A stretch of DNA of 64,000 bases, from NCBI GenBank assembly GCA_031459915.1, contig JAVKHO010000001.1:25492-89491 (forward strand), in the 5' to 3' direction. Under the pieces are notes generated by a model that made no database searches, had not been told where the DNA came from, and saw nothing but the letters and a program-made list of their open reading frames with translations. The translations under genes were made by a program, and so were the position numbers. Below, piece by piece: positions 9,450 to 10,652 of the stretch. Each line of letters opens with the position of its first letter. The stretch's first letter is position 1. The stretch is from Candidatus Tepidifontimicrobium thermophilum. GTDB taxonomy: Bacteria > Sysuimicrobiota > Sysuimicrobiia > Sysuimicrobiales > Sysuimicrobiaceae.

Positions 9450-10652
9450 TCACGCGCCACGGGCACCCAGCCATCCGTCCACCACGACGTCCCCCGCGTC
9501 CACCCACTCCCCCTGCGCCAGGATCACCGCGCGGTGTACTACTGCCTCCAGCTCCCGCACGTTCCCCGGCCAGGCGTACTGCCGGAGCTTGTGCAGCGCG
9601 GCTTCCGTGAACCCCCGCACGGGTCTGCCGGTCTGCCGGCGGTACTTCTGCACGAAGAACTCCACCAGCAGCGGGAGGTCCTCCAGCCGCTCCCGCAGGG
9701 GCGGCAGGTGCAGCGACACCACGTTCAGCCGGTAGTACAGGTCCTCCCGGAACGTGCCCTCCCGGACCATCTGCCGCAGGTCCCGGTTGGTGGCCGCCAC
9801 GATGCGACAGTCCACCCGCACCGGCCGACTGCCGCCGACCCGTTCCACGACGCGTTCCTGGAGCACCCGCAGCAGCTTGACCTGCATGCGGGGCGACATG
9901 TCGCCCACCTCGTCCAGGAACAGCGTGCCGCCCTGGGCCTGCTCGAACTTGCCGGGGCGGGAGCCCACCGCGTGGGTGTACGCGCCCTTCTCGTGACCGA
10001 ACAGCTCCGTCTCCAGCAGGGTCTCCGGCACCGCCCCGCAGTGCAGCACCACCAGCGGTCCGGAGGCGCGACGGCTCTGCAGGTGGATGGAACGGGCCAC
10101 CAGCTCTTTCCCGGTCCCCGACTCCCCCGTGAGCAGCACCGTCGCGTCCGTGGGCGCGACGATGGAGGCCACCCGCAGCACCTCGAGCAGGGCGGGCGAG
10201 CTCCCCACGACTCCGTCGAAGCGGTAGGCCCGCGCCAAGTCCGCCTGCCACCGCGCCCGTTCGTCCCGCTCGCTGCGCAGCCTCACGAGCTGGCGGATCC
10301 TTTCAGCCGCCACCTCCAGGCCCTCGGACCCAGCCACCACGTCCGTGGCACCCGCGCGCACCGCGGCGACCACCTCCGAGACCGTGGGCGACAGTAGGGC
10401 GACCACCACGGGCAACTCGGGCGCCCTGACCCGCACCGCAGCGACGCCCTCCGTACGGCCCACCACCACCGCGGCGAGGTCCTCTGGGCGGGGGAGAGGT
10501 GCGCCTTCCGGTACCACCGTCACCCCCACGCCCGCACGCCTCAACTCTCGGGCGAGCTCCTCCCCGAGGCCATCCAGGGGTTCGAGGAAGAGGACCGTAC
10601 CGGGCGAGGCTTCTGCCAGACGTTCCGGGTGTAGCTGAACTGTCTTCCCCAT
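9450..10652 (-). CDS. sigma54-dependent transcriptional activator (bacterial enhancer-binding protein), FlgR-like. It lacks a C-terminal HTH domain and has a degenerate receiver.
   Basis: The AAA+ sigma54 interaction domain has Walker A GESGTGKE, a GAFTGA-type loop present as GAYTHA, and a domain end at [12 protein letters not shown]. No helix-turn-helix follows. In the N-terminal ~130-aa REC-like fold, the DD pair and the phospho-Asp position are replaced (LFLEPLDG and VVVGRTEG). The true start is the ATG at 10650-10652 (MGKTV), which has a GGGGAG RBS. Confidence 0.85.

Follow-up and report, generated by a model that had tools for sequence, protein, structure and literature searches.

A predicted sigma-54 activator without a DNA-binding domain and with a degenerate receiver in a flagellar and chemotaxis gene cluster of Candidatus Tepidifontimicrobium thermophilum

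This study examined a gene for a predicted sigma-54 activator of the bacterial enhancer-binding protein (EBP) type in a 64 kb stretch of DNA (72% G+C; hereafter the window) from Candidatus Tepidifontimicrobium thermophilum (GenBank assembly GCA_031459915.1, contig JAVKHO010000001.1, positions 25,492 to 89,491). The gene (9450–10652) lies on the minus strand together with a chemotaxis cassette, and its product is probably an autoregulated, enhancer-independent activator of flagellar and chemotaxis genes of the FlgR/CtcC type, whose output would be set by its expression and not switched by phosphorylation. According to this proposal, the EBP-type AAA+ ATPase would act on sigma-54 RNA polymerase from solution, with no attachment to DNA, and would switch on the -24/-12 promoters of flagellar and chemotaxis genes independently of enhancers, like Helicobacter FlgR. 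The target promoters would be its own, that of the HD-GYP-cheW-cheA-cheY-rpoN genes, and that of the large operon starting with flgB. Phosphorylation would no longer be the switch; the output would depend mainly on the sigma-54-dependent, positively autoregulated expression of the EBP itself, possibly gated by a terminator-like hairpin in the leader. The degenerate receiver (pseudo-receiver) and the long linker helix may serve as a dimerisation or assembly module of the NtrC1/DctD type, for which modulation by a partner would be optional.

The domain architecture of the EBP was delimited as follows.

9450–10652, minus strand: EBP gene, 400 amino acids (aa), with pseudo-receiver, linker helix, sigma-54-interaction AAA+ domain and AAA lid (Pfam and NCBIfam scans, family alignments)
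10248–10610, minus strand: pseudo-receiver and alpha5/linker helix, aa 15–135 (alignment, AlphaFold, Foldseek, and the ratio of non-synonymous to synonymous substitutions, dN/dS)
9711–10208, minus strand: sigma-54-interaction AAA+ core, with Walker A at 10104–10127, Walker B at aa 244–250, and intact arginine fingers and sensor II (Pfam, mapping onto FleQ)
9969–9986, minus strand: L1 loop GAYTHA at the GAFTGA position, identical in 21/21 family proteins
9486–9695, minus strand: AAA+ lid, with 11 residues between the lid and the protein end (Pfam)

The sigma-54-interaction domain was found to be complete, as the preliminary description of this DNA had proposed. Sigma54_activat (PF00158) matched at an E-value of 4e-70 (235 bits against a cut-off of 20.2), AAA_lid_14 was also matched, and both Walker motifs and the arginine fingers were present. 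When the protein was mapped onto FleQ, K182, E183, R187, R262, R302 and R366 fell on conserved catalytic residues, R262, R302 and R366 corresponding to the arginine fingers and sensor II of FleQ (R260, R300 and R363). All sequence strings quoted in the preliminary description were located where it had placed them: LFLEPLDG (aa 21–28), VVVGRTEG (aa 62–69), the Walker A motif GESGTGKE (aa 176–183), GAYTHA (aa 223–228), and WPGNVREL (aa 361–368). The Walker B motif LFLDEVG occupies aa 244–250. After WPGNVREL only 32 more residues precede the stop codon at 9450–9452. The claim that the protein ends early without a helix-turn-helix (HTH) held as well, since Pfam at E ≤ 0.1 returned no HTH_8 on the EBP; Response_reg (PF00072) was likewise absent, and Sigma54_activat was the only one matched of these three models, which had been suggested for checking the domain boundaries. 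A cryptic HTH reached by a frameshift or read-through was looked for by tblastn with five HTH_8 sequences, and every frame near the 3' end gave noise only. The likely start codon is the ATG at 10652; a longer open reading frame (ORF) from the in-frame GTG at 10712 was rejected, as the same codon is GCG in a relative of 99% identity. The NCBIfam models for NifA, AtoC, NtrC, FlbD and FlgR all matched over the AAA+ part, each far under its own cut-off. The NifA, AtoC and FlbD models outscored the FlgR model (NF049963, 256.8 bits against a cut-off of 750), and the FlbD model aligned well across the AAA+ domain with 337 bits (cut-off 750).

The same architecture is shared by a family of proteins. 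A protein search gave about 22 relatives of 380–414 aa with 61–99% identity to the EBP, all of them metagenomic and assigned to Armatimonadota wherever named, and no HTH or Pfam receiver match was obtained in these family proteins. GAYTHA (21/21), both Walker motifs and the arginine fingers were without variation in the family alignment, and the ORF stopped 178–183 aa past the GAYTHA motif in 20/20 family loci, a common truncation point. The DNA-binding domain is therefore lacking in all family members. Other close relatives have intact receivers with GAYTGA or GAFTSA loops, and some of these also lack an HTH (P0029, P0037). Loci L004–L083, which hold distant EBPs from a contig profile scan driven by generic AAA+ peptides, were left out of all analyses.

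The N-terminal domain keeps the fold of a receiver without its chemistry. The preliminary description had proposed a receiver-like fold for the first ~130 aa with the acidic pair and the phospho-acceptor Asp replaced, and both parts were borne out. Alignment with receiver-bearing relatives (about 50–57% identity) revealed EP in place of the acidic pair DD, a seven-residue deletion exactly at the phospho-Asp and the beta3-alpha3 loop, replacement of the conserved Thr, and a change of the conserved Lys to Gly. All five positions of the D-D...D...T/S...K phospho-acceptor signature are gone, and no intact DD...D...K reappeared on re-alignment with these relatives. Judged from this alignment, the receiver of the EBP cannot be a conventional phospho-acceptor. 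AlphaFold modelled aa 19–135 with a predicted local distance difference test (pLDDT) score of 85–92 as five strands and four helices, alpha2 being absent, and an unbroken long helix (aa 112–142) runs from the pseudo-receiver into the linker, a feature of the NtrC1/DctD type. In the full-length model the AAA+ part was weak, with a mean pLDDT of 60 from a shallow alignment, and the N-terminal domain alone was interpreted. With Foldseek, the full-length EBP best matched the receiver-AAA+ structures of NtrC1, NtrC4, NtrX and LuxO in inactive states (top structures 1NY5, 4L4U and 3DZD), and the N-terminal domain alone matched receiver domains with target-normalised TM-scores of 0.53–0.73, including the non-phosphorylated orphan regulator HP1043.

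At the sequence level, the N-terminal domain is nearly an orphan. A phmmer search with the first 140 aa against 1.84 billion representatives gave five matches: one family fragment, two bona fide receivers at E ~1e-4, the only non-family ones among those examined, and two proteins of 7,573 and 3,251 aa matched over several short stretches, which were taken to be compositional. The size of the family cannot be estimated from this search. The pseudo-receiver is nevertheless present in every family member. Its dN/dS was 0.28–0.31 in close pairs and higher in distant pairs, against 0–0.1 for the AAA+ domain, and its identity was 33–66% across pairs with an AAA+ identity of 84–95%. Within the N-terminal half, the family alignment showed the alpha4-beta5 segment and the linker to be the best-kept portion.

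The genomic context of the EBP supports its assignment in the preliminary description as a flagellar sigma-54 activator, through its location in a flagellar cluster, the rpoN gene in the same cassette, and the conserved -24/-12 promoters before flagellar and chemotaxis genes. The cassette has the order (MCP)-EBP-GAF/HD-GYP-CheW-CheA-CheY-RpoN, in which the order from EBP to RpoN was found in every locus examined, and the gene for a methyl-accepting chemotaxis protein (MCP) is usually immediately upstream of the EBP gene. In the window the genes are as follows.

10770–12500, minus strand: MCP gene, upstream of the EBP gene
8015–9406, minus strand: HD-GYP gene, encoding a degenerate receiver, a GAF domain and an HD-GYP phosphodiesterase, with intact HDVGK and HHHERWDGRGYP motifs
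7532–8011, minus strand: cheW (domain scan)
5610–7526, minus strand: cheA, with Hpt, P2, dimerisation, HATPase and CheW domains (domain scan)
5258–5620, minus strand: cheY, a canonical receiver
3776–5182, minus strand: rpoN (sigma-54), with strong matches for the core-binding and DNA-binding domains, a divergent region I, and a CxxC...CxxC insertion in region II

The cassette lies within a flagellar cluster in the window and in most relatives (four of the first five annotated loci), flanked by flgM-flgN-flgK-flgL-fliW-csrA-fliC-flaG-fliD-fliS-fliT on one side and by flgB-flgC-fliE-fliF-fliG-fliH-fliI-fliJ...flgD-flgE-motA-motB-fliL-fliM-fliY on the other. In one subgroup (P0016–P0019, loci L002 and L129), the MCP-EBP-HD-GYP-CheWAY-RpoN cassette stands outside the flagellar cluster and is followed by genes for a Big_5 protein, an unknown protein and an SAF/RcpC (CpaB-like) protein, and then by a GAF-PAS-GGDEF gene on the opposite strand; the targets of the activator may differ in this subgroup. 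The HD-GYP gene lies immediately downstream of the EBP gene, as had been described. In its product the receiver at the N-terminus is degenerate, with RCVVVG replacing the DD pair, 'DAVVVDV' kept and the Lys absent, and the GAF domain comes next; the enzyme looks catalytically intact from its motifs. The annotated GTG start of this gene at 9466 overlaps a sigma-54 promoter, and the true start is probably the GTG at 9406 or the ATG at 9400. The preliminary description had stated that no kinase gene is adjacent; this overlooked cheA, two genes downstream, but was right in that the cassette holds no HisKA-type kinase. No other EBP was found in the window.

Promoters of the sigma-54 type were identified before genes of the cassette and the flagellar cluster, and the EBP gene has a structured leader.

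10755–10769, minus strand: TGGCACGGATCTTGC, before the EBP gene, abutting the MCP stop codon; in 20/20 family loci and the sister lineage (L088)
10653–10754, minus strand: 5' leader of the EBP gene, with hairpin P1 and the long hairpin P2, followed by a U-rich tract
9435–9448, minus strand: GGCACGGACTTTGC, before the HD-GYP gene, just past the EBP stop codon; in 20/20 family loci
3748–3761, minus strand: GGCACCGATTGTGC, with one mismatch, before the flgB-flgC-fliE-fliF-fliG... operon; in 4/4 flagellar loci and L088
12529–12542, minus strand: sigma-54-type promoter before the MCP gene
14670–14683, minus strand: sigma-54-type promoter before fliD-fliS-fliT

These sites follow a conserved consensus, GGCAC-N5-TTGCA. 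Where 0.76 occurrences of the exact form GGCAC-N5-TTGC would be expected in the 64 kb, four were counted, a number reached in 2 of 100 shuffles. All four fall on the coding strand in a stretch of 5.3 kb, each immediately before a gene (fliD, MCP, EBP and HD-GYP), and sites with one mismatch precede flgB and a rod gene at ~24.7 kb. The EBP promoter was exact in 20/20 family loci. The HD-GYP promoter was exact in 15 of the 20 and carried a single -24 mismatch in the other five (GGCAG in L002, L114 and L117; GGCAT in L089 and L123). Further sites were present before the fliK region and fliL. The junctions read TAG-TGGCAC after the MCP gene and TGA-C-GGCAC after the EBP gene, so that the promoters abut the preceding stop codons and leave no intergenic room for an enhancer. 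The -12 element of the flgB promoter stands only ~16 nt upstream of the annotated flgB ATG (3730–3761, minus strand), and the transcript would be nearly leaderless unless the start codon lies further downstream.

As both the activator and the sigma factor lie behind sigma-54 promoters, the two would form a positive feedback loop. Sigma-28-like promoters (TCAAG-N15-16-GCCGATA) precede fliC (16364–16390, minus strand) and flgM (20091–20116, minus strand), which would place the EBP above a hierarchy leading from sigma-54 to sigma-28. The fliC leader also carries two CAAGGAGG motifs, one at the ribosome-binding site, with fliW-csrA just upstream, an arrangement suggesting that flagellin translation is controlled by FliW/CsrA, as it is in Bacillus.

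The leader of the EBP gene spans about 100 nt between promoter and start codon. Of its two hairpins, P2 is closed by GGGGAG:CUCCCC, and its interior differs wholly among seven lineages and yet always pairs (folding free energy -28 to -41 kcal/mol), with a U-rich tract after it in 5/7. By its predicted structure the leader looks like a terminator or transcription attenuator, and its CUCCCC strand could instead base-pair with the true Shine-Dalgarno sequence. The possibility that this leader is a known riboswitch, the cyclic di-GMP (c-di-GMP) classes included, was considered and rejected, the best Rfam match being cyano_tmRNA with 17 bits against a gathering score of 70.

The probable ancestral state of the system is visible in a sister lineage from Armatimonadota metagenomes (locus L088, protein P0045). 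The gene order of this lineage (fliD-fliS-fliT ... EBP-HD-GYP-cheW-cheA-cheY-rpoN-flgB...) agrees with that of the present family, and the three sigma-54 promoters and an RpoN with the zinc ribbon are shared as well. It differs in carrying a PAS-HisKA-HATPase kinase and a single-domain receiver protein at the position of the MCP in the present family, and intact receivers in both the EBP and the HD-GYP protein. Its EBP has the L1 loop GAFTNA and keeps a C-terminal extension, and the receiver of its HD-GYP orthologue is canonical, with no GAF domain in that protein. Since the same locus exists there with a kinase and intact receivers, the GAYTHA family can be regarded as a derived, phosphorylation-independent form of an FlgS/FlgR-like system; as read from this comparison, the kinase is gone from the family, and neither of the two receiver-containing proteins retains the phospho-acceptor chemistry. 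Moreover, because the HD-GYP neighbour already accompanies an intact receiver and a kinase in the sister lineage, it appears to be ancestral and not acquired to offset the loss of phosphorylation.

Concerning the L1 loop, GAYTHA keeps G1, A2, T4 and A6 of GAFTGA and changes F3 to Y and G5 to H. Natural variants at both positions are documented: Francke et al. reported F3 to Y in TouR and G5 to D in epsilonproteobacterial FlgR, and counted H with the residues putatively allowed at G5 (PMC3162934), and a computational survey of D. vulgaris gave GAFTHA in DVU2894, to which a flagellar regulon was assigned there, together with GAYTDA and GAYTGS (PMC4641369). A metagenome scan for FGHExGAYTHA returned 36 loci, of which about 16 belong to the present EBP family and about 20 are unrelated EBPs (38–54% identity) with an intact receiver (DD...D...T...K), a GAF domain or no N-terminal domain. 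Where the C-terminus of these unrelated EBPs was complete, it extended 240–266 residues beyond the motif, against 178–183 in the EBP family, and resembled a Fis-type HTH when judged by eye only, without Pfam. The motif is thus present as the preliminary description had stated, but its remark that GAFTGA is near-invariant in active EBPs was too strong, and its use of GAYTHA as a pointer to control by a ligand or partner was not upheld in view of these variants. On the evidence of these alignments, GAYTHA is a recurrent natural variant that would contact sigma-54 and is alone no sign of unusual regulation.

A second pair of sigma-54 and EBP genes was found in a related metagenome-assembled genome (MAG), GCA_025059775.1 (loci L129 and L087), which has two rpoN paralogues of 44% identity, each beside its own EBP. 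One pair consists of the RpoN and the GAYTHA EBP without an HTH in the chemotaxis cassette. In the other, a receiver-AAA+-HTH EBP with a GAYTGA loop stands in a non-flagellar context (DctM, arginase, LysR, nfu, gatCAB). Neighbouring protein accession numbers suggest that the two pairs co-occur in four more MAGs. A paralog with GAFTGA acting as the real flagellar activator, which the preliminary description had considered, was not what this second EBP proved to be, as it has no flagellar association. The cassette RpoN and all six relatives examined contain a zinc-ribbon-like insertion, CPxCG...CxRCG, in region II (~aa 55–75). H. pylori reportedly needs a zinc-ribbon protein of its own, HP0958, for RpoN to accumulate, and this protein is a candidate parallel to the insertion. 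Region I is divergent: the Pfam AID model matched with 22 bits, under its cut-off of 23.8 and over its second half only, and the two RpoN types read 'LQTILAVN' and 'MVPKLMAVN'.

The main rival to expression-set output is partner switching, in which the pseudo-receiver would keep the AAA+ domains locked in an off-state dimer like that of NtrC1, to be freed by a protein partner, the candidates being the degenerate receiver of the HD-GYP protein, phosphorylated CheY, or an assembly checkpoint protein like Caulobacter FliX on FlbD. This is unlikely in our estimation, even though several observations favour it. The nearest structures are the inactive dimers of NtrC1 and NtrC4 with their long linker helix, conservation in the N-terminal half is highest at the alpha4-beta5 face and in the linker, no member has dropped the domain, whose dN/dS stays below 1, and the receivers of the EBP and the HD-GYP protein are both degenerate here and both canonical in the sister lineage, which suggests a joint change. 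However, the fast evolution of the domain relative to the AAA+ domain also fits a relaxed, signal-blind module, and computation cannot separate expression-level control from partner switching; the action of some ligand or partner on the pseudo-receiver is possible. A particular ligand, c-di-GMP, had been put forward in the preliminary description by analogy with FleQ, the adjacent GAF/HD-GYP phosphodiesterase then setting its local level. Downstream of the EBP gene there is indeed invariably the HD-GYP gene, which has its own sigma-54 promoter and whose HD and GYP motifs are intact, and FleQ and VpsR are EBPs able to bind c-di-GMP, VpsR being among the Foldseek matches. In FleQ, c-di-GMP is coordinated by R138, R144, R151, R185, E330 and R334 (PMC10723142). 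Residue-by-residue alignment placed A140, D146, P153, F332 and K336 of the EBP at R138, R144, R151, E330 and R334, and only one of the six contacts was kept, namely R185 (R187 in the EBP), which is a general Arg after Walker A. Pfam found no FleQ-type N-terminal domain in the EBP, the pairing of EBP and HD-GYP is ancestral and occurs also in the kinase-bearing sister lineage, so that it does not depend on phosphorylation having been lost, and the HD-GYP enzyme, as one product of the regulon, may merely link c-di-GMP turnover with motility. Direct control of the EBP by c-di-GMP is hence rather improbable; it is plausible that c-di-GMP and motility are connected in this organism, given that the gene of the HD-GYP enzyme is always next to the EBP gene and has a sigma-54 promoter of its own.

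Another reading takes the GAYTHA EBP and the cassette RpoN as a private, insulated motility sigma-54 circuit coexisting with a generic sigma-54/EBP pair, with the L1 His and the altered region I as matched specificity determinants and with gating by the pseudo-receiver and/or the leader RNA, not by phosphorylation. We regard this as unlikely; region I differs between the two RpoN types in a way that fits it, but in a small sample, and the covariation between GAYTHA and region I of RpoN appears suggestive but comprises two outgroup sequences only, and no claim is made from it. That the EBP is a relic or decoy, with GAYTHA and the broken receiver marking a failure to activate sigma-54 and another EBP doing the work, is very unlikely, although a second EBP with receiver, AAA+ domain, HTH and GAYTGA does exist in GCA_025059775.1. 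That EBP adjoins a second rpoN in a non-flagellar context, whereas the AAA+ domain of the GAYTHA EBP is under very strong purifying selection with invariant catalytic residues and GAYTHA, its own promoter is conserved in 20/20 loci, the window holds no other EBP, and GAYTHA occurs in many otherwise canonical EBPs.

Several points also weigh against the autoregulated, phosphorylation-independent activator that we favour. Its ATPase activity, the contact of GAYTHA with sigma-54 and the use of the promoters are all deduced from sequence. Some purifying selection still acts on the pseudo-receiver (dN/dS ~0.3 in close pairs), with alpha4-beta5 best conserved, which argues that the domain still does something and possibly receives a signal. 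A closed positive loop needs a basal promoter, and a sigma-70 consensus scan over the cassette found none, although this consensus may not suit the phylum. Finally, as the comparison covered individual loci, other EBPs may exist in the window's own organism.

Compared with known systems, each odd feature of the EBP has a precedent, and the combination of a missing DNA-binding domain with a pseudo-receiver, in a phylum without prior study, is new. Helicobacter FlgR, cited in the preliminary description as a precedent for an enhancer-independent activator, is confirmed as such by the literature, and the published EBPs without a DNA-binding domain also include CtcC and FleT. FlgR of H. pylori (group 5, or type Ic, with Chlamydia CtcC) likewise joins a receiver-type N-terminus to a sigma-54 AAA+ domain and lacks a DNA-binding domain at the C-terminus, and it activates flagellar sigma-54 promoters without an enhancer, as the present EBP would do; position 5 of GAFTGA is also altered in epsilonproteobacterial FlgR (G to D). 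In contrast, FlgR is phosphorylated by FlgS on an intact receiver, whereas here the phospho-Asp loop is deleted and DD, T and K are gone. The EBP is not an FlgR orthologue, given its NCBIfam score under the cut-off, and its gene appears autoregulated and is co-encoded with rpoN. The loss of the DNA-binding domain looks independent of that in FlgR.

P. aeruginosa FleQ and Vibrio FlrA are master flagellar sigma-54 activators with a receiver-like, non-phosphorylated N-terminus and an AAA+ domain ~45% identical to that of the EBP. Unlike the EBP, which has no FleQ domain, HTH or set of c-di-GMP contacts, FleQ has an HTH, binds enhancers and c-di-GMP, and is antagonised by FleN. FlbD of Caulobacter crescentus is a flagellar sigma-54 activator with an atypical receiver, in which a partner protein, FliX, and not a dedicated kinase, ties activity to flagellar assembly. 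However, FlbD has an HTH and binds ftr enhancers, the EBP scores far under the FlbD cut-off, and no FliX-like gene was identified here. Aquifex aeolicus NtrC1 and Sinorhizobium DctD, the best structural and sequence matches, share the receiver-linker-AAA+ arrangement with a long coiled-coil-type linker helix, but they are released from an off-state dimer by phosphorylation and carry an HTH, and the EBP has neither feature.

These data extend sigma-54 flagellar control to Armatimonadota, a phylum with almost no experimental genetics. They also describe what appears to be a natural case in which an FlgS/FlgR-type two-component switch was rewired into a phosphorylation-independent, self-activating module, with the ancestral-type state still visible at the same locus. 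The module is compact, as activator, sigma factor and promoters lie within 7 kb and no enhancer would be needed. Such a minimal system bears on how activators without a DNA-binding domain find the sigma-54 holoenzyme, which L1-loop variants are tolerated, and whether two sigma-54 paralogues in one cell are kept separate; the current understanding of how sigma-54 activators act is unchanged by the finding.

The only matches over the Rfam gathering threshold in the window were two tRNA genes (29522–29594, minus strand; 42866–42951, plus strand). Past ~24.8 kb the window contains housekeeping genes, including those for aconitase, acetyl-CoA synthetase and an ATP-dependent DNA ligase, as well as proB/proA-like genes.

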